Positions 45,757 through 55,249 are shown, numbered from the stretch's first letter. The stretch is 64,000 nucleotides of DNA from Escherichia coli (GCF_036507355.1 NZ_AP027877.1); one strand, 5' to 3'. The notes: generated by a model from the sequence alone, not told the origin. Numbers and translations: made by a program.

Positions 45757-46719
45757 TTATTGCACGAAGCGCGAGGTAACGTACTGGCTGTAATCATTCG
45801 CTACAGCCGGGACCTTGCCCTGCTCTTTCAAAAACTGCGCGGTGTCGATGATCGCTTTGTTCACCGGTCCGGTCAGTTCTGCCGTTTGTTGCTGCGGCGT
45901 CAGATAGGTATTCCCCTTCACCAGCCCCGGAACGTCACCTTCAGGCACGCCGCTTAAACGCGCCAGTTTGCTGATGTTTTCCGGCTGTTTCAGCCACACG
46001 TCTGGGTTAGCAATGTACGGTTGCTGAGCATCGATGGCGCTTTTAGCGAACGCTTTCACGACCTCAGGATGTTTCTCGGCAAAATCTTTGCGCACCACCC
46101 AGACGTCCAGCGTTGGCGCGCCCCACTGTCCGACCTGTTCAGAATCGGTCAACACCTTGCCGTCTTTTTCCAGGGCGTTAACCGCCGGTGCCCAGACATA
46201 AGCACCATCAATATCTCCCCGCTGCCAGGCAGCGATAATCGCGGGCGGCTGCAGGTTCACAATCTCCACTTGCCCGGGTTTAATGCCCCAGTGTTTCAGC
46301 GCCGCCAGCAGGCTGTAGTGGGTGGTGGAGATAAATGGTACGGCGATGCGTTTGCCAATCAGATCTTCCGGTTTGCTGATAGTTTTCTTTACCACCAGCG
46401 CTTCGGAGTTACCCAGTTTTGACGCCAGCAAGAAGACTTCAATCGGCACCTGTTGGCTGGCTGCAACCGCTAACGGGCTGGAACCGAGGTTGCCGATTTG
46501 CACGTCGCCTGAAGCCAGCGCCCGCACGATGCTGGCTCCGCTGTCAAACTTACGCCAGTCCACGGTTGCTCCGCTTTCTTTAGCAAAGGTGTTGTCGGCC
46601 TGAGCCACTTTCGCCGGTTCGGCTGAGGTTTGATACGCCACGGTGACGTTCACCGCCTGCGCCTGAAAAGCGATGAATGCCAGTGCGGCAAGAAGAGTAT
46701 TACGCGATGAAATTGCCAT
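45757..46719 (-). CDS. tauA: taurine ABC transporter periplasmic binding protein
   Basis: 320-aa ORF with signal peptide; first gene of tauABCD. Confidence 0.93.
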   Translation of the reverse strand: MAISSRNTLLAALAFIAFQAQAVNVTVAYQTSAEPAKVAQADNTFAKESGATVDWRKFDSGASIVRALASGDVQIGNLGSSPLAVAASQQVPIEVFLLASKLGNSEALVVKKTISKPEDLIGKRIAVPFISTTHYSLLAALKHWGIKPGQVEIVNLQPPAIIAAWQRGDIDGAYVWAPAVNALEKDGKVLTDSEQVGQWGAPTLDVWVVRKDFAEKHPEVVKAFAKSAIDAQQPYIANPDVWLKQPENISKLARLSGVPEGDVPGLVKGNTYLTPQQQTAELTGPVNKAIIDTAQFLKEQGKVPAVANDYSQYVTSRFVQ

Positions 46720-47021
46720 GATTGTCTGCTCCCCTGTCTTGTTATGGGAGCAGTATTTCGTTGCGGGTCAGTTTGATAAAGGAATTAAAAGGTCTTGTTA
46801 AGAACAAAGCGTTTTTAGAAAAAAATCGGCAATGGTTAGCGAGTTTGCGCATTTTGCGGTTTTGGCGAACGTATCCCGCCGGTTCACAAGCCAGATAATA
46901 TGTGCGCGCTCCGGCAAATTATTGCCATTTTGTTACATCCATTCCATATCTGTCGCTGGTTGATTGCCAGCGCCGCGCCGTGATGCATGATAGGAGAATT
47001 AGATAATAAGAGAAGAAAAGT

Positions 47022-47651
47022 ATGATTCGGGTAGTGCTGGTGGATGACCATGTGGTGGTGCGCTCTGGCTTCGCACAATTACTCTCTCTGGAAGACGATC
47101 TGGAGGTCATTGGTCAGTACAGTAGTGCCGCGCAGGCATGGTCGGCATTAATCCGTGATGACGTCAATGTTGCCGTCATTGATATTGCCATGCCGGACGA
47201 AAACGGCCTCAGTTTGCTTAAGCGCCTGCGTGCACAAAAACCGCAATTTCGCGCCATTATTCTTAGCATTTATGACGCGCCAACCTTTGTGCAAAGCGCG
47301 CTGGATGCCGGTGCCAGCGGGTATTTAACCAAACGCTGTGGGCCGGAAGAGTTAGTGCAGGCGGTGCGCTCGGTCGGGCTGGGCGGGCATTATCTCTGTG
47401 CCGATGCGATTCGGGCTTTACGCGGCGGCGGGCAATCCGCCCAGGCGCTGGAAATTCTCACCCCGCGAGAACGTGAAGTGTTTGATTTACTTGTCAAAGG
47501 AGACAGCGTTAAAGAGATCGCCTTTAAACTCGAACTCAGTCATAAAACGGTACATGTGCATCGCGCCAATGTGCTGGGAAAACTGAACTGCCATAGCACC
47601 ATTGAACTGGTACATTTTGCGCTCGACCACCATCTGCTGGCGGGGCATTAA
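47022..47651 (+). CDS. UhpA-like NarL/FixJ-family response regulator (paralog, not canonical uhpA)
   Basis: 209-aa ORF MIRVVLVDDHVVVRSGFAQLL...; receiver domain plus LuxR-type HTH (EIAFKLELSHKTVHVHRANVLGKL); clearly similar to but distinct from K-12 UhpA. Confidence 0.85.
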   Translation: MIRVVLVDDHVVVRSGFAQLLSLEDDLEVIGQYSSAAQAWSALIRDDVNVAVIDIAMPDENGLSLLKRLRAQKPQFRAIILSIYDAPTFVQSALDAGASGYLTKRCGPEELVQAVRSVGLGGHYLCADAIRALRGGGQSAQALEILTPREREVFDLLVKGDSVKEIAFKLELSHKTVHVHRANVLGKLNCHSTIELVHFALDHHLLAGH

Positions 47652-49192
47652 TGTCGCGCAATCTTCGTCATTGGGTGATTTCGCTGTTTATTGTGCTGGC
47701 CTGGGGAACCGGCTGGCTGATGCTGTGGACGCTCAGCTTTTATCTGACCAATAACGGTCAACAGGCGGTGTTGTTTCTCCCGCAGGGAGTTTATCTCGCC
47801 CTTGTTATTTTGCTCTCTCGCCGCTACTGGCCTGCGTTGGTGCTCCCCCCTTTGCTGATGATGTTCTGGCTCCATAGTGAACAGCTATTGAACGGTTATC
47901 TCATGCTGGCAACGCCGATTATTAGCCTGTTTCCTGTCCTCCTTGCGCAAAACTTCTGGCACCGTTTTCCACTTTACTGGCAGCGTCTGACGTTGCTGTT
48001 AGCCACTGTCACGGCAGCTTCATTGTTGAATACCGCCCTGCTCTCCCCTTTTATGTCAGGCCCAATAATGCTGCCGGGTTTGACCTCATTTACCGGCGGC
48101 GTATTACTGACGCCGTTTGTCTATCTTATCTTTGAGTTTCTGCGCCAGCAGCATCGCTACCAGCTCCTGGGACTCGATACGCATAATCCCCCCTTGCGTA
48201 CCTCTTTAATCATCTGGTGTAGCCTGTTTTTTATTATTGGTATCGGCACTCAGATGGTGCTGTCACCTGAAATTGAACGTCTGCTGTTGATCGTGGTCTT
48301 TTTGCCCAATGTGGTGATGGCGTGGAAATTTGGCTGGCAAGGTGGCGTACTCTCCGGGCTTTTGGGCAGCATGATGATCACCATCGCCCGCCAGATTGGC
48401 GTGGGCTTTAGTAACCTGGTGGAGCTGGAGATTTTCCTCGCGACCCAGGCCTTGCTGGGAATTGGCCTGGGCATTGCCATCAGTCGCCAGCAACATCTGG
48501 CGCTAAACCTGCACCATTACCGACAACGGCTGGAGGCCGAGCTGGCAGCGCGGCGGGCATTGGCGGAAAAGCTGATCCACACCGAGGAGGACACGCGAAA
48601 AAACCTGGCGCGAGAGCTGCACGACGAAATCGGTCAGAACATCACCGCCATTCAGATCCAGTCGCAACTGGTGAAGCGGGCGCGTGATCCGGCGCAAATT
48701 CAATCCGCAGCCAGCCAAATCAATGAGCTCGCCCGCCGCATTCATCTCTCCACCCGCCAATTGCTGCGCCAGTTGCGGCCTCCCGCGCTTGATGAACTGA
48801 CATTTCGCGAAGCGTTGTTGCATCTGATTAATGAATTTGCCTTTAGTGAACGCGGCATTCATTGCCAGTTTGCCTATCAACTGAACTCCACACCAGAAAA
48901 CGAAACGGTGCGCTTTACCTTGTATCGGTTATTACAGGAGTTGCTCAATAACGTCTGTAAACACGCCGAAGCCAGCGAAGTGACGATTATCCTGCGCCAG
49001 CAGGGAGAGGTATTGCATCTGGAAGTCAGCGACAACGGTGTGGGGATCGCCAGCGGGAAAATGGCCGGATTTGGCATTCAGGGGATGCGTGAGCGCGTCA
49101 GCGCCCTGGGCGGCGACTTAACGCTCGAAAAACAGCACGGCACGCGGGTAATTGTTAACTTGCCCACATTTTTGCAACAAATCGCCGGATAA
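47651..49192 (+). CDS. UhpB-like membrane sensor histidine kinase
   Basis: 513-aa ORF, N-terminal multi-TM domain, H-box ELHDEIGQNITAI, C-terminal HATPase; start overlaps regulator stop (TAATG). Confidence 0.85.
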   Translation: MSRNLRHWVISLFIVLAWGTGWLMLWTLSFYLTNNGQQAVLFLPQGVYLALVILLSRRYWPALVLPPLLMMFWLHSEQLLNGYLMLATPIISLFPVLLAQNFWHRFPLYWQRLTLLLATVTAASLLNTALLSPFMSGPIMLPGLTSFTGGVLLTPFVYLIFEFLRQQHRYQLLGLDTHNPPLRTSLIIWCSLFFIIGIGTQMVLSPEIERLLLIVVFLPNVVMAWKFGWQGGVLSGLLGSMMITIARQIGVGFSNLVELEIFLATQALLGIGLGIAISRQQHLALNLHHYRQRLEAELAARRALAEKLIHTEEDTRKNLARELHDEIGQNITAIQIQSQLVKRARDPAQIQSAASQINELARRIHLSTRQLLRQLRPPALDELTFREALLHLINEFAFSERGIHCQFAYQLNSTPENETVRFTLYRLLQELLNNVCKHAEASEVTIILRQQGEVLHLEVSDNGVGIASGKMAGFGIQGMRERVSALGGDLTLEKQHGTRVIVNLPTFLQQIAG

Positions 49193-49264
49193 CCAGGAAA
49201 AAGTCTTAGGTATCCCGGATTTTCTCTCATCCCCTTTCACTTTCATTTTCATATAGTCAGCAAC

Positions 49265-50581
49265 ATGGAGACAACCATGCACGCGCGTTCAGCGAGAGAA
49301 ATTAATCAATGCTACCGGACATTACGTCCGCGATTGCTGATGTGCATGATTATTGGCTACGCCGCATTTTATCTGACGCGAAAAAGCGTGAATTACGTCC
49401 TTCCGGCGCTACAAACCGACCTCGGACTGGATAAAGGCGACATTGGCCTGCTGGGTTCGCTGTTTTATCTCAGCTACGGATTGTCGAAATTTACCGCCGG
49501 ACTGTGGCATGACAGCCACGGACAACGCGGTTTTATGGGCGTCGGCTTGTTCGCCACCGGGTTATTGAACGTGGTGTTTGCCTTTGGCGAATCACTTACG
49601 CTTCTGCTTGTGGTCTGGACACTGAACGGTTTTTTTCAGGGCTGGGGATGGCCACCGTGTGCCCGCTTGCTGACCCACTGGTACTCACGCAATGAGCGCG
49701 GTTTCTGGTGGGGCTGCTGGAATATGTCGATCAACATTGGCGGAGCGATTATTCCGCTGATTAGCGCCTTTGCCGCCCACTGGTGGGGCTGGCAGGCCGC
49801 GATGCTGACACCGGGGATAATCAGCATGGCATTAGGGATCTGGTTAACGCTACAACTCAAAGGCACGCCCCAGGAAGAGGGATTACCGACAGTTGGTCAC
49901 TGGCGTCACGATCCGCTGGAGTTACGTCAGGAACAACAAAGTCCGCCGATGGGGCTGTGGCAAATGTTGCGCACCACCATGCTGCAAAATCCGCTGATCT
50001 GGCTACTGGGCGTCTCTTATGTACTGGTTTATGTGATCCGGATTGCGCTTAACGACTGGGGCAATATCTGGCTGACGGAAAGCCACGGTGTCAACCTGCT
50101 CAGCGCCAACGCCACGGTAATGCTGTTTGAAGTGGGCGGCTTACTCGGCGCGTTATTTGCCGGATGGGGATCGGATTTGCTGTTTAGCGGGCAACGAGCG
50201 CCAATGATTTTGCTGTTCACGTTGGGGTTGATGGTGTCAGTCGCCGCACTGTGGCTGGCACCGGTTCATCACTACGCTCTGCTGGCAGTGTGCTTTTTTA
50301 CCGTGGGCTTTTTCGTCTTTGGCCCACAAATGCTGATTGGACTTGCGGCGGTGGAGTGTGGGCACAAAGCTGCGGCGGGTTCAATCACCGGATTTCTCGG
50401 CCTGTTCGCTTACCTTGGCGCGGCGCTGGCAGGCTGGCCGCTGTCGCTGGTCATCGAACGCTACGGCTGGCCGGGAATGTTCAGTTTACTCTCGGTCGCC
50501 GCAGTACTTATGGGTTTACTGCTGATGCCGTTACTGATGGCGGGCATCACCACCACTCACGCTCGAAGGATAAAACAATGA
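49265..50581 (+). CDS. UhpC-like MFS membrane sensor/transporter
   Basis: 438-aa 12-TM MFS ORF resembling UhpC/UhpT organophosphate:phosphate antiporter family. Confidence 0.8.
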   Translation: METTMHARSAREINQCYRTLRPRLLMCMIIGYAAFYLTRKSVNYVLPALQTDLGLDKGDIGLLGSLFYLSYGLSKFTAGLWHDSHGQRGFMGVGLFATGLLNVVFAFGESLTLLLVVWTLNGFFQGWGWPPCARLLTHWYSRNERGFWWGCWNMSINIGGAIIPLISAFAAHWWGWQAAMLTPGIISMALGIWLTLQLKGTPQEEGLPTVGHWRHDPLELRQEQQSPPMGLWQMLRTTMLQNPLIWLLGVSYVLVYVIRIALNDWGNIWLTESHGVNLLSANATVMLFEVGGLLGALFAGWGSDLLFSGQRAPMILLFTLGLMVSVAALWLAPVHHYALLAVCFFTVGFFVFGPQMLIGLAAVECGHKAAAGSITGFLGLFAYLGAALAGWPLSLVIERYGWPGMFSLLSVAAVLMGLLLMPLLMAGITTTHARRIKQ

Positions 50582-51609
50582 AAATGACCTTTACCTCTAC
50601 TCTGATTGCTTCTGCCGTTGCGCTGGCGACTTTAACGGGTGCCGCGCAGGCAAAAGGCCGGCTGGTGGTCTATTGCAGCGCCACCAATGAAATGTGTGAG
50701 GCCGAAACCAAAGCGTTTGGCGAGAAATATGATGTAAAAACCTCGTTTATCCGCAACGGTTCCGGAAGCACCCTGGCAAAAGTCGATGCTGAAAAGAAAA
50801 ACCCCCAGGCTGACGTCTGGTACGGCGGCACTTTAGACCCGCAATCGCAGGCTGGCGAGATGGGCCTGCTACAGGCGTATAAATCCCCTAACCTTGAGCA
50901 GATCATGGAGAAATTCCGCGATCCGGCAAAAGTGAAAGGGAATCTGTCCTCTGCCGTTTATGTGGGGATCCTCGGTTTTGGCGTAAACACCGATCGTCTG
51001 AAAGAGAAAAACCTGCCGGTGCCGAAGTGCTGGAAAGATCTCACCAAACCGGAATATAAAGGCGAAATTCAAATTGCCGATCCGCAAAGTTCCGGTACTG
51101 CCTACACCGCCCTGGCTACTTTTGCGCAGCTGTGGGGGGAAGATCAGGCCTTTGATTATCTAAAACAACTGAACGCCAACGTCTCTCAGTACACCAAATC
51201 AGGCATAGCCCCGGCACGTAACGCCGCCCGTGGCGAAACGGCGATTGGTATTGGCTTCCTGCATGACTACTCGCTGGAAAAAGAACAGGGCGCGCCGCTG
51301 GAGTTGATTTCCCCGTGTGAAGGTACAGGCTACGAAATTGGCGGCGTCAGCATTCTGAAAGGCGCGCGCAACCTCGACAACGCCAAACTGTTTGTGGACT
51401 GGGTATTATCAAAAGAAGCGCAGGAACTGGCATGGAAGAAAGGGAAGTCTTATCAGATCCTGACCAATACCACCGCCGAAACGTCGCCAAACTCACTGAA
51501 GCTCGACGACCTGAAATTAATCAACTACGACATGGACAAATACGGTTCCACGGATGTTCGTAAGGCATTGATTAATAAATGGGTTAGCGAAGTAAAAATG
51601 GGTAAATAA
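50578..51609 (+). CDS. afuA: periplasmic substrate-binding protein of AfuA/FbpA family (ABC importer; likely sugar-phosphate rather than ferric iron)
   Basis: 343-aa product with signal peptide MKMTFTSTLIASAVALATLTGAAQA; ATG overlaps uhpC-like stop (ATGA); followed by two-domain permease and ATPase. Confidence 0.7.
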   Translation: MKMTFTSTLIASAVALATLTGAAQAKGRLVVYCSATNEMCEAETKAFGEKYDVKTSFIRNGSGSTLAKVDAEKKNPQADVWYGGTLDPQSQAGEMGLLQAYKSPNLEQIMEKFRDPAKVKGNLSSAVYVGILGFGVNTDRLKEKNLPVPKCWKDLTKPEYKGEIQIADPQSSGTAYTALATFAQLWGEDQAFDYLKQLNANVSQYTKSGIAPARNAARGETAIGIGFLHDYSLEKEQGAPLELISPCEGTGYEIGGVSILKGARNLDNAKLFVDWVLSKEAQELAWKKGKSYQILTNTTAETSPNSLKLDDLKLINYDMDKYGSTDVRKALINKWVSEVKMGK

Positions 51610-51677
51610 ACCCGCATTAGGCGCATTTGCCGGGTGCAGCGCAGACGCCTGCCCCGGCCAACCATACCGGAACTGCT

Positions 51678-53756
51678 ATGTCACAGACACTTGCACTCCA
51701 TCCCGTGAAAAAGCGGGATGCGATTTTCCTTTGGGTTTTGCTGGGCTGGCTGGCATTTATACTGTTGCCGAGCTGGAGCCTCGATTATGGCCTGCTGGAG
51801 TCCACGAGTGATGAGATCCTCGAGGCTTATGGCTGGTCGCATTTTAATATCAGCTGGCTGTGGTATTTGTTACCGAGTCTGTTGCTGGTTCGCCCGTTTC
51901 GTGAGGCCACACGCGAACAGCGTAGTCGTCATTATTTTGATGCCGGCTGGGCATTGCTCTGTATGGCGTTTATCGTCATCAGCGCCACCGTGGTTGGACG
52001 CGGTTTAGGCTACGCCGCCATCGTGCTGTTTGTCGAACTAGGCGCGATTATGACGCTGGCCTTAACCCGCCTCGAATGGCTGGGTGGCGACCGCTTCGTG
52101 ATCGGCTCACTGATTGCGATTGTGGCGCTGATTGGCATTTTTATCGTCTGGCCGAGCATCGCCATTTTTATCCCGATGTTCACCAACGACGCGGGAGAGT
52201 TCGCCCCGCTGGCGTTTATGACCGTGCTCTCGCAGGCACATATTGTTCAGGTGATCGTCAACTCTATCGTCTTGTCGATAGCGGTGGGGATAGGCTGTAC
52301 TTTCTTCGGCCTGGTGCTGGCGATTTATACCACGCGCATCGCTAAACGCAGCGCCATTATTGGTCGCATCTTTTCCATTTTGCCCATCGTTACGCCACCG
52401 TTTGTGGTCGGCTTAGGCGTGACGCTCATGATGGGGCGCTCCGGCTATGTTACGGAATTTATGGTGGAGTGGTTTGGGCTGACCAACACCAACTGGCTGT
52501 ACGGTTTTACCGGGATCTGGCTGGCACAGGTTCTGGCATTCACGCCAATGGCATTTATGATCCTCGACGGGGCCATTAAAACCATTCATCCCTCGCTGGA
52601 AGAGGCCTCCTACACCCTGCGCGCCAGCCGCTGGCAAACCTTTAACGGCGTGTTTGTGCCGTTGTTGAAGCCCGCACTCGCCAATGCCTTTTTAATCGTC
52701 GTGGTACAGTCACTGGCTGATTTCAGTAACCCGCTGGTACTTGGCGGTAACTTCGACGTACTGGCGACGCAAATTTACTTCTATATTACCGGCTCGCAGC
52801 TGGATTATCAGGCCGCCAGCACCCTTGGCGCTTTCCTGCTGCTGTTCTCGCTGCTGGTGTTCTGCATCCAGTATATGTGGATTGGTAAACGCTCTTACGT
52901 CACGGTTTCCGGCAAATCCTACCGTGGCGACGTCCAGCCGCTACCGGTCACCCTGGTGTGGAGCGTGGTCGCCATACTTGCGATATGGATTGCCTTTAAC
53001 GCCCTGCTCTACGGCAGCATTTTCTACGGCAGCTTCACGGTGAACTGGGGCGTGGACTACACCCTGACGCTGGATAACTTTATCAAGCTATTTGGTCAGG
53101 GAATGAGCGACGGCGCCTGGCCTTCACTGCTGGATACCCTGCTCTACGCCGGGATTGCCGCTCCCATTACCGCTATCTTTGGCCTGCTCATCGCCTGGGT
53201 GGTGGTGCGTCAACAATTCAAAGGCAAAAAGACCATCGAGTTCACCACCATGCTGTGCTTTGCCGTACCGGGTACGGTGGCGGGCGTTTCGTATATTCTT
53301 GCCTTTAACAGCGCTCCGGTTTATCTCACCGGAACGGCGGCAATTGTGATTATCTCGATGGTGATGCGTAACGTTCCGGTGGGTATTCGCGCCGGGATTG
53401 CGGGTCTGGGGCAGATCGACAAATCGCTGGATGAAGCCTCACTCAGCCTGCGCGCGGGTTCACTGCGAACCATTACGCACATTTTACTGCCGCTGCTGCG
53501 CCCGGCCATTCTCTCGGCCCTGATCTACAGCTTTGTGCGGGCCATCACGACGGTCAGCGCCATCGTCTTTCTCGTCACGCCGGACACCCGCGTGGCAACC
53601 GCCTACATTCTTAACCGCGTTGAAGACGGCGAATATGGCGTAGCCATCGCCTATGGTTCGATTCTGATCGTGGTGATGCTGGCGATTATTTTCCTCTTTG
53701 ACTGGCTGATCGGAGAAGCTCGTATCTCCCGTTCTAAAGCCAAAAACCAGGCGTAA
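51678..53756 (+). CDS. afuB: ABC transporter permease, duplicated 6-TM domains (AfuB/FbpB type)
   Basis: ~692-aa polytopic protein with two permease repeats; start may be up to 17 codons upstream. Confidence 0.7.
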
Positions 53757-54814
53757 TGGAGCGCACTATGAGTCAGAAAAATTTTGTTGAACTGCGCAAC
53801 GTCACTAAACGATTCGGCAGTAATACGGTTATCGACAATATCAATCTCACCATTCCACAAGGGCAAATGGTGACGCTGCTCGGTCCTTCCGGCTGTGGCA
53901 AAACCACCATTTTGCGTCTGGTTGCCGGGCTGGAAAAACCGAGCGAAGGGCAAATTTTTATTGATGGCGAAGATGTCACGCATCGTTCCATTCAACAGCG
54001 CGATATCTGCATGGTGTTTCAGTCATACGCTCTGTTCCCGCATATGTCGCTGGGTGAAAACGTTGGCTACGGGCTGAAGATGCTTGGCGTGTCGCGTAGC
54101 GAAGTGAAACAGCGGGTGAAGGAGGCGCTGGCAATGGTGGATCTGGAAGGCTTCGAGGACCGCTATGTCGATCAGATTTCCGGTGGTCAGCAACAGCGTG
54201 TGGCACTGGCCCGCGCGTTGATCCTCAAGCCAAAGGTGCTGCTGTTTGATGAGCCGTTAAGTAACCTCGATGCCAACCTGCGCCGCAGTATGCGCGATAA
54301 GATCCGCGAGCTGCAAAAGCAGTTTAATATCACGTCGCTCTACGTCACTCACGATCAAAGTGAAGCTTTCGCGGTGTCCGACACTGTGCTGGTGATGAAT
54401 AAAGGTCACATCATGCAGATTGGCTCACCGCAGGATCTCTATCGTCAGCCAGCCTCCCGATTTATGGCAAGTTTTATGGGCGACGCCAACCTGTTCCCGG
54501 CGAACTTTAGCGAAGAGTATGTCGATATCTACGGTTATCGCCTGCCGCGCGCGGCGCATTTCCCGGCGCAAGGTAGCGGCACCGTCGGCGTTCGCCCGGA
54601 AGCCATCACCTTAAGCAATCACGGCGAAGAGAGTCAGCGTTGTGTTATTCGCCATGTCGCCTACATGGGGCCGCAGTACGAAGTGACCGTAGAGTGGCAT
54701 GGACAGGAGATTTTATTACAAGTAAACGCCACCCGTTTACAGCCCGATATTGGTGAGCACTATTACCTCGAAATCCATCCTTACGGGATGTTTGTTTTAG
54801 CGGATGCGGCATAA
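53756..54814 (+). CDS. afuC: ABC transporter ATP-binding protein (AfuC/FbpC/PotA type)
   Basis: Walker [10 protein letters not shown], signature [15 protein letters not shown], Walker [12 protein letters not shown]; start overlaps afuB stop (TAATG). Confidence 0.8.
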
Positions 54815-54896
54815 AAATAGCACATAAACGGTCCCCATCTGTCTTGAGGGACCGTTCACCTGGTTAGGCTTCGGACAACAATTATTCTCCAGTGTT

Positions 54897-54949
54897 ATAT
54901 ACTATAGGGGGGTATGCATTGACATATAGCATACCCCCCTATAGTATAT
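54897..54949. promoter_or_regulatory. FrmR operator: perfect 21-bp inverted repeat ATATACTATAGGGGGGTATGC / GCATACCCCCCTATAGTATAT around an 11-bp spacer
   Basis: Arms at 54897-54917 and 54929-54949 are exact reverse complements, centred ~50 bp upstream of frmR. Confidence 0.8.
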
Positions 54950-54973
54950 TGCGTGCAGATGATGAGGTGCGAA

Positions 54974-55249
54974 ATGCCCAGTACTCCGGAAGAGAAGAAA
55001 AAGGTCCTTACTCGAGTTCGTCGTATTCGGGGGCAGATTGATGCTCTGGAACGGTCGCTGGAGGGTGATGCCGAATGCCGTGCCGTACTCCAACAGATCG
55101 CTGCCGTTCGGGGCGCGGCTAATGGGCTGATGGCAGAAGTGCTTGAAAGCCATATCCGGGAAACGTTTGACCGAAATGACTGCTACAGCCGCGAAGTCAG
55201 CCAATCCGTTGACGACACTATTGAACTGGTTCGTGCCTATCTTAAATAG
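54974..55249 (+). CDS. frmR: formaldehyde-responsive transcriptional repressor FrmR (start taken at [10 protein letters not shown])
   Basis: 91-aa CsoR/RcnR-family product, recognised. Confidence 0.93.

Follow-up and report, generated by a model that had tools for sequence, protein, structure and literature searches.

A UhpABC-like sensor module joined to the AfuABC sugar-phosphate importer in Escherichia coli O-island 20, with a predicted uhpT-type promoter and a wide distribution of the six-gene module

What do the six genes lying between tauA and frmR in some Escherichia coli genomes sense, and which genes do they switch on? The question is raised by a 64,000-nucleotide stretch of the E. 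coli sequence GCF_036507355.1 (NZ_AP027877.1), hereafter the window, in which positions 46720-54973 hold a UhpABC-like regulator, kinase and major facilitator superfamily (MFS) protein, followed by an AfuABC-type ATP-binding cassette (ABC) importer. The locus is already known as O-island 20 of enterohaemorrhagic E. coli (EHEC), and its transporter was characterised in 2015. Two literatures that do not match describe these same six genes, one treating the first three as a fucose virulence sensor and the other treating the last three as a system for sugar-phosphate import. What is new here is a conserved uhpT-type promoter within the locus and the breadth of the six-gene module. Taken together, these comparisons moderately favour a widespread six-gene module for sugar-phosphate sensing and import, whose internal promoter, P2, would be activated by the sensor. 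An earlier reading made from the DNA alone (the sequence-only reading) had proposed a sugar-phosphate-sensing ABC uptake module in an accessory locus absent from K-12. That proposal gains support from the retention of the six genes across genera and from the predicted uhpT-type promoter, which lies in a gap where it had been suggested to look for a promoter. The absence from K-12 also stands, but the reading overlooked that the locus had already been named O-island 20 and that FusR and FusK had been published; since they were published as a fucose sensor repressing z0461, its interpretation contradicts the literature.

Open reading frame (ORF) calling on the window places six co-oriented ORFs, all on the plus strand, in the tauA-frmR interval. 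They are listed below with their flanks and with their identity to the proteins of O157:H7 strain Sakai.

45757-46719, minus strand: tauA, one flank of the six-gene locus
47022-47651, plus strand: response regulator FusR (Z0463, ECs_0418), a UhpA paralogue; 207/209 residues identical to Sakai
47651-49192, plus strand: MASE1 sensor histidine kinase FusK (Z0462, ECs_0417), a UhpB paralogue; 509/513 residues identical to Sakai
49277 (first ATG 49265) to 50581, plus strand: UhpC-like MFS protein Z0461 (ECs_0416); 434/434 residues identical to Sakai
50578-51609, plus strand: AfuA, periplasmic sugar-phosphate binding protein (ECs_0415); 343/343 residues identical to Sakai
51678-53756, plus strand: AfuB, fused two-domain ABC permease (ECs_0414); 686/692 residues identical to Sakai
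53768-54814, plus strand: AfuC, ABC ATPase (ECs_0413, annotated fbpC); 347/348 residues identical to Sakai
about 54974-55249: frmR, the other flank

The genes are tightly packed. The stop codon of the regulator and the start codon of the kinase have one base in common (47651), and the MFS stop codon overlaps the afuA start in an ATGA at 50578-50581, exactly where the sequence-only reading had seen it. The 72-nucleotide (nt) gap which that reading had reported between kinase and MFS genes is correct to the first ATG; the start at 49277, which has a GGAGA ribosome-binding site, is conserved across species and equals the RefSeq start, lengthens the gap to 84 nt.

The association of these genes extends far beyond E. 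coli. A scan for AfuA with one genome per species returned 348 relatives; the best 80 of them, each with an identity of 85% or more, were retained and are distributed over about 35 Enterobacterales genera, including plant- and insect-associated ones; the six window proteins and K-12 UhpABCT were compared with these 80 loci by tblastn. Regulator, kinase and MFS protein lie directly upstream of afuABC, with order and strand kept, in 75 of the 80 loci, the remaining five being cut by the locus end, and no counter-example was found. The 80 loci are all free of a UhpT-like gene within 10 kb, and none is present in the tauA-frmR interval of the window, as had been proposed. A separate observation concerns L029 of Leclercia adecarboxylata NCTC13032 (2823-9340), in which the tblastn matches of kinase, AfuB and AfuC are only partial, which suggests frameshifts, pseudogenes or assembly errors.

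The same six genes are also found in Vibrio and Proteus mirabilis. The Afu-linked regulator, kinase and MFS protein of Vibrio are 56%, 43% and 55% identical to those of the window, and the regulator and kinase of the window are closer to this Vibrio pair (56%, 43%) than to K-12 UhpA and UhpB (48%, 35%), so that the six-gene association appears to predate the split between Vibrio and Enterobacterales. Regulator and kinase identities do separate Afu-linked from UhpT-linked clades, whereas those of the MFS protein give no clean division, the Vibrio protein being 60% identical to K-12 UhpC and 55% to the window protein.

This distribution bears on the published model, according to which FusK senses L-fucose, phosphorylated FusR represses ler, z0461 and fuc, Z0461 helps fucose import, and afuABC is a separately regulated neighbour. 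The model rests on the results of Pacheco 2012, as restated in reviews and in a transcriptome paper, and FusKR was likewise taken as a neighbouring fucose sensor by Sit 2015 (PMC4546632), where EHEC afuABC is located on O-island 20 beside the FusKR two-component system. Reviews add that FusKR is restricted to O157:H7, or derived from Enterococcus (E. faecalis). The joint travel of the six genes through about 35 genera and Vibrio, together with the apparent age of the module, contradicts both statements.

The window itself points the same way. Genes, order and tauA-frmR site are all as in the O157:H7 island (fusR-fusK-z0461-afuABC), and positions 46720-54973 are collinear with Sakai ECs_0418-ECs_0413, which occupy the tauA-frmR interval in that order too, at 98.9% nucleotide identity with no indels and 89 substitutions; these lead to amino-acid changes in FusR (2), FusK (4), AfuB (6) and AfuC (1). 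The best match to the window locus (99.6%) comes from a strain of bovine origin whose genome measures 4.88 Mb. Because the window does not carry the Sakai allele and is closest to this bovine strain, the island is not confined to O157:H7.

The second line of evidence comes from the gap between the kinase and MFS genes, which was aligned from 17 genera and then anchored in 77 usable loci (74 distinct sequences). Its elements in the window are the following:

49153-49168, plus strand: CRP-like site TGTTAACTTGCCCACA in the last kinase codons, centre 91.5 nt upstream of the -10 box
49193-49209, plus strand: 17-bp inverted repeat CCAGGAAAAAGTCTTAG just after the kinase stop codon, predicted response-regulator site, centre about -63
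49215-49233, plus strand: promoter-proximal element CCCGGA-N4-TCTCATCCC over the -35 region
49252-49257, plus strand: -10 box TATAGT of P2, the predicted regulated promoter, start expected near 49264

Across the anchored loci these elements keep a fixed register, with no indels between them, even though kinase identity drops to 55%. The inverted repeat stands directly 3' of the kinase stop codon in 77/77 sequences, becomes a perfect palindrome in some genera (CTAGGAATAATTCCTAG), and is also found in Vibrio, Proteus and Iodobacter. It is followed by a partly conserved CCGGA-type motif (CCCGGA at 49215-49220 in the window), by TCTCATCC (49225-49232), conserved at more than 90% across the 74 distinct sequences, by a variable spacer of 18 nt, and by a TAnAnT box whose distance is constant in nearly all 77 loci. 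The CRP-like site (TGTTAACyTGCCCACA) agrees with TGTGA-N6-TCACA at 8/10 positions and keeps its offset in 73 of 78 rows, window and K-12 included. Third-codon entropy in the six codons that it covers is 0.00-0.42 bits, against 0.8-1.8 at other invariant residues of the kinase tail, and such near-invariant third positions argue for selection on the DNA itself.

This arrangement is that of the K-12 uhpT promoter, in which CTAAGAAATTTTCCAGG, CCTGGA, TCTCAGGCC, 18 nt and TACAAT follow one another in the same register save for a 1-nt shift of the repeat; the CRP-like site, an inverted repeat near -64, TCTCAnnCC and the -10 box all stand at matching offsets. In K-12 uhpT, the counterpart is a CAP-like sequence, CGTGATGCATCTCACC, presumably the known CAP site, and it too is centred 91.5 nt from the -10 box. 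Position matrices built from Afu loci alone were scanned over both strands of the 11-kb K-12 uhp locus (about 22,000 positions). The repeat matrix ranks the -64 element of uhpT first among all these positions (z = 5.2), and a non-overlapping 46-nt core matrix likewise places the core promoter of uhpT at the top, in the correct register (z = 4.8). The operators of the Afu-linked and uhpT systems agree at 14 of 17 positions. Comparison therefore predicts that the kinase-MFS gap is a uhpT-type promoter.

Other functions for this gap were considered. The palindrome after the kinase stop codon was rejected as a terminator, since it is AT-rich, lacks a T tract and did not appear in the terminator scan. 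An Rfam scan of the locus at a permissive threshold gave two sub-threshold matches only, none of them in the gap, so that a conserved RNA element is not a better explanation of its conservation. No second copy of the inverted repeat, such as autoregulation might use, was detected upstream of the regulator gene in the window, either by a 3-mismatch pattern search or by position matrix. In Raoultella planticola (L012, about 8490-8680), some 190 bp of extra sequence lie between the -10 box and the ribosome-binding site, and the upstream promoter elements are intact.

The cargo of the system is indicated by its importer. The binding protein matches AfuA of A. pleuropneumoniae (PDB 4R72-4R75) with E = 1.5e-169 over residues 25-343, the two being roughly 80% identical by eye in a printed alignment, and PDB 8X1A with E = 1.7e-173. 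Its H229, D230 and E253 align with the sugar-coordinating H205, D206 and E229 of AfuA, and the motif His205, Asp206, Glu229 served to define AfuA homologues (Sit 2015, PMC4546632). Permease and ATPase genes follow afuA, as in AfuABC systems; several single-domain permease models match AfuB in two stretches, and AfuC scores 699.5 with NCBIfam PRK11432, over the cut-off of 496. AfuABC imports glucose-6-phosphate and fructose-6-phosphate as well as sedoheptulose-7-phosphate, binding or transport having been shown with the A. pleuropneumoniae and C. rodentium systems (Sit 2015, PMC4546632). By orthology, the AfuABC of the window is probably a member of this sugar-phosphate ABC importer family, with the same class of substrate.

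Database names would instead make it a ferric-iron ABC transporter: RefSeq and Sakai annotations use fbpC and periplasmic iron-binding protein, and the NCBIfam model of the ATPase is named likewise. Ferric-binding proteins of the FbpA/HitA type hold iron through a Glu and a Tyr-Tyr pair. When the binding protein is aligned with HitA (PDB 6IVY, E = 2e-12), the EE of the TEE motif falls on Gly-Gly and the YY on Leu-His (L228-H229), and true ferric-binding proteins in general reach only about 1e-12, far from the 1.5e-169 of AfuA. An iron function has, moreover, already been refuted for orthologues, and it has practically no chance of being correct here. The sequence-only reading, which had set the iron annotation aside, is borne out by the missing HitA ligands and by the retained His-Asp...Glu of AfuA.

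The sensor genes resemble UhpABC and yet are distinct from it. The regulator is 48% identical to K-12 UhpA, with the architecture of receiver plus LuxR/GerE helix-turn-helix kept, the phospho-acceptor D54 aligned and an identical recognition helix, KTVHVHRAN. Over its full length the kinase shares 35% identity with UhpB; it contains the Pfam domains MASE1, HisKA_3 and HATPase_c, and has a histidine motif, LHD(D/E)IGQ, that aligns with that of UhpB. Both score under the corresponding NCBIfam equivalog cut-offs (regulator 193.8 against 258 for UhpA; kinase 381 against 408 for UhpB), which makes them paralogues of UhpA and UhpB. For the MFS protein, identity is 52% to UhpC and 30% to UhpT; the protein exceeds the cut-off of the UhpC subfamily model NF008661 (587.7 against 564), and falls far under the UhpT and GlpT cut-offs. 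It also keeps, as R39 and R259 (ORF numbered from 49265), the equivalents of UhpT R46 and R275, which are invariant across UhpC and UhpT. Such arginines bind phosphate in the UhpC/UhpT transporter family, and fucose has no phosphate. Z0461 is a predicted co-sensor and possibly a carrier too. These identities and scores agree with the families assigned by the sequence-only reading (NarL-family regulator, UhpB-like kinase, UhpC-like MFS protein and AfuABC) and with its view that the sensor genes are paralogous to, and distinct from, canonical UhpABC.

The same data leave some room for a variant with the same architecture, in which the signal is another organophosphate, or in which the MFS protein is mainly a carrier and the kinase reads flux or an intracellular cue. 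The sub-cut-off scores of regulator and kinase would suit it, as would the sensor domain of the kinase, which diverges fastest across the 80 loci (to 55% identity, while AfuA stays at 85%). An AfuA relative, PDB 6WCE, binds pyridoxal phosphate; the AfuA of the window, however, has the hexose-phosphate His-Asp...Glu and not the His-Ala of P5PA. A carrier role is hinted at by the betaproteobacterium Iodobacter (L088, L089; 5788-9317 in L088), which has the regulator-kinase-MFS trio only: with the inverted repeat in place and no other transporter nearby, the MFS protein can perhaps itself be the regulated carrier. The position of Z0461 above the UhpC cut-off and far below those of UhpT and GlpT speaks against this. 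In the Iodobacter gap the repeat reads CTAAGACTTTTTCTTAG, and neither an ABC importer nor UhpT is in the vicinity.

The known systems most like this one also bear on the nature of the signal. For V. cholerae, a citing paper reports that the homologue studied by Moisi et al. 2013 is a system for hexose-6-phosphate, which counts against a different signal. A like layout with the same six-gene order is seen in the Vibrio locus L084, which is not V. cholerae; there, the inverted repeat overlaps the kinase stop codon, and a gap of 77 nt separates the MFS gene from afuA, in contrast to the overlap in the E. coli window. The V. cholerae system is the VCA0682-VCA0687 locus. All in all, a different signal or a carrier-type MFS protein is considered quite unlikely.

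If the sugar-phosphate module favoured here is correct, it could operate as follows. A weak, conserved promoter, P1, would supply basal regulator and kinase and, through read-through, basal MFS protein. The UhpC-like MFS protein would bind external sugar phosphate and signal to the MASE1 kinase in the manner of UhpC and UhpB, and the kinase would phosphorylate the UhpA-like regulator. The phosphorylated regulator would then bind the 17-bp inverted repeat at about -63 in the kinase-MFS gap and, with cyclic AMP-CRP at about -103.5, activate P2, placing it under catabolite control. From P2, the MFS gene and afuABC would be transcribed together, and the ATGA overlap would couple translation of MFS protein and AfuA. 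As its gene lies downstream of the regulated promoter, the co-sensor would be under positive feedback.

The parallel with K-12 UhpABC-UhpT extends to a paralogous regulator with an identical recognition helix, a paralogous MASE1 kinase and a predicted MFS co-sensor, and it breaks at two points. The regulated promoter stands after uhpC in K-12 and, as predicted, before the uhpC-like gene in the window, and the output is the UhpT antiporter encoded downstream of uhpC in the former and the ABC importer AfuABC in the latter, so that an ATP-driven importer would take the place of an antiporter. The identical recognition helix and the operator match at 14 of 17 positions make cross-activation between FusR and a canonical Uhp system in the same cell plausible.

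Expression data agree with parts of this scheme. In a Sakai culture on glucose minimal medium, expression of ECs0415 (afuA) rises 37-fold when growth on glucose ends, the largest rise among O157-specific ORFs, and ECs0416 increases at the same transition; this joint rise at glucose exhaustion fits CRP control and co-transcription. That array study was the only one retrieved by a literature search with the afu locus tags, and in the literature searched FusK and AfuA are mentioned together in a single paper, merely as neighbours. In bovine gut contents, z0461 and fusKR go up together, a rise that the authors found hard to square with repression.

Several points weigh against a sugar-phosphate sensor that activates P2. 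According to papers citing Pacheco 2012, FusK autophosphorylates on L-fucose, and FusR represses ler, z0461 and the fuc genes; the citing papers also state that deletion of z0461 impairs growth on fucose and that Z0461 aids fucose import. The reported repression of z0461 is opposite in sign to the predicted activation. The whole case for P2 is a comparative inference; the regulator and kinase, being paralogues, could respond to another signal; and, with the lone trio of Iodobacter in view, the role of the MFS protein could be that of a carrier instead of a sensor.

Nevertheless, as a complete account the published model is unlikely. Beyond the distribution of the six genes, the overlap between z0461 and afuA leaves no room for a promoter between them; the predicted regulated promoter has an activator-type layout that matches that of uhpT; Z0461 exceeds the cut-off of the UhpC model and keeps the arginine pair that UhpC and UhpT share; and the rise of z0461 together with fusKR in gut contents is, according to its authors, inconsistent with repression. 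UhpB, the canonical kinase, depends on UhpC for sugar-phosphate sensing (Sit 2015, PMC4546632), and if this holds for the present kinase, an assay of kinase alone would miss a sugar-phosphate signal. The conflict between the module proposed here and the fucose-sensing, repressing model arises because the sensor is expected to activate in response to sugar phosphate.

A bolder form of this interpretation can be advanced tentatively, at slightly less than even chances. FusK, FusR and Z0461 would not be primarily a fucose sensor; they would form a sugar-phosphate sensor of the UhpABC type, dating back to the Vibrio-Enterobacterales split or earlier, whose conserved role would be to turn on z0461-afuABC through a CRP-dependent promoter of the uhpT type. 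In strains with both systems, this sensor and UhpABC may cross-activate each other's transporters, and the virulence effects attributed to fucose sensing would become a side branch of sugar-phosphate sensing. The comparisons point to the six genes forming one regulatory unit on the uhpT promoter plan. If that is correct, an often-cited EHEC virulence signal would need re-examination, with gut sugar phosphates as the likely cue, and an island found in roughly 10% of complete E. coli genomes, as well as many Enterobacterales, would represent a widespread nutritional trait instead of a virulence gain specific to O157.

The accessory status of the locus was established by blastn against strain AVS0744, in which the site is empty and whose sequence matches the window backbone through 46857 and again from 54882, thereby delimiting the following segment:

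46858-54881: accessory segment of the O-island 20 type between the tauA and frmR backbone

The locus, at 80% or more of its length, is present in 518 of 5426 complete E. coli genomes (~10%). In K-12 MG1655 the frmR-tauA interval is annotated with yaiO, yaiX::IS2A, yaiP, ykiC and yaiS, which confirms both the absence of the locus from K-12 and the list that the sequence-only reading had given, with ykiC in addition. The tauA-frmR spot of E. coli thus exists in at least three states: the 8.0-kb six-gene module, the K-12 yaiS-ykiC-yaiP-yaiX::IS2A-yaiO cassette, and a 75-bp filler resembling repetitive extragenic palindromic (REP) sequences in AVS0744. The comparison of GC content with the flanks, also suggested by the sequence-only reading, revealed no difference (0.51-0.57 in the locus, as in its flanks), and base composition gave no sign of recent foreign origin in the locus.

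Further elements in and around the locus are listed here by position.

46932-46947, plus strand: direct repeat GTTACAT-CC-ATTCCAT upstream of P1
46964-46991, plus strand: candidate promoter P1 of the regulator-kinase pair (-35 TTGCCA, 16-nt spacer, -10 CATGAT), from a consensus scan
51629-51658, plus strand: GC-rich REP-like hairpin in the afuA-afuB gap, from the centroid fold
54827-54856, plus strand: 9-bp stem-loop AACGGTCCC...GGGACCGTT after afuC, with no T tract, read from the sequence
54919-54947: frmR promoter TTGACA-17-TAGTAT

The hexamers of P1 can be recognised, similarly spaced, in most aligned representative loci. Among 17 representative loci aligned to the window sequence, most keep the direct repeat as GTTACAT-NN-(G/A)TT(A/C)CAT and several have it as GTTACAT-NN-GTTACAT; it is a possible site for some regulator. 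In the afuA-afuB gap, the folding energy of the hairpin is not unusual (z = -1.3, not significant), and the minus strand of 51586-51659 gives a sub-threshold Rfam match to the REP-derived naRNA4 (30.8 against 59.5 bits). The terminator scan found no clear intrinsic terminator between afuC and the frmR promoter, and the stem-loop at 54827-54856 was not among its matches; on this weak evidence it is a possible 3' end structure. The frmR promoter lies inside a long inverted repeat, TATATACTATAGGGGGGTATGC ... GCATACCCCCCTATAGTATAT (about 54897-54949), detected as a reverse-strand self-match of the frmR upstream region, which is presumably the FrmR operator.

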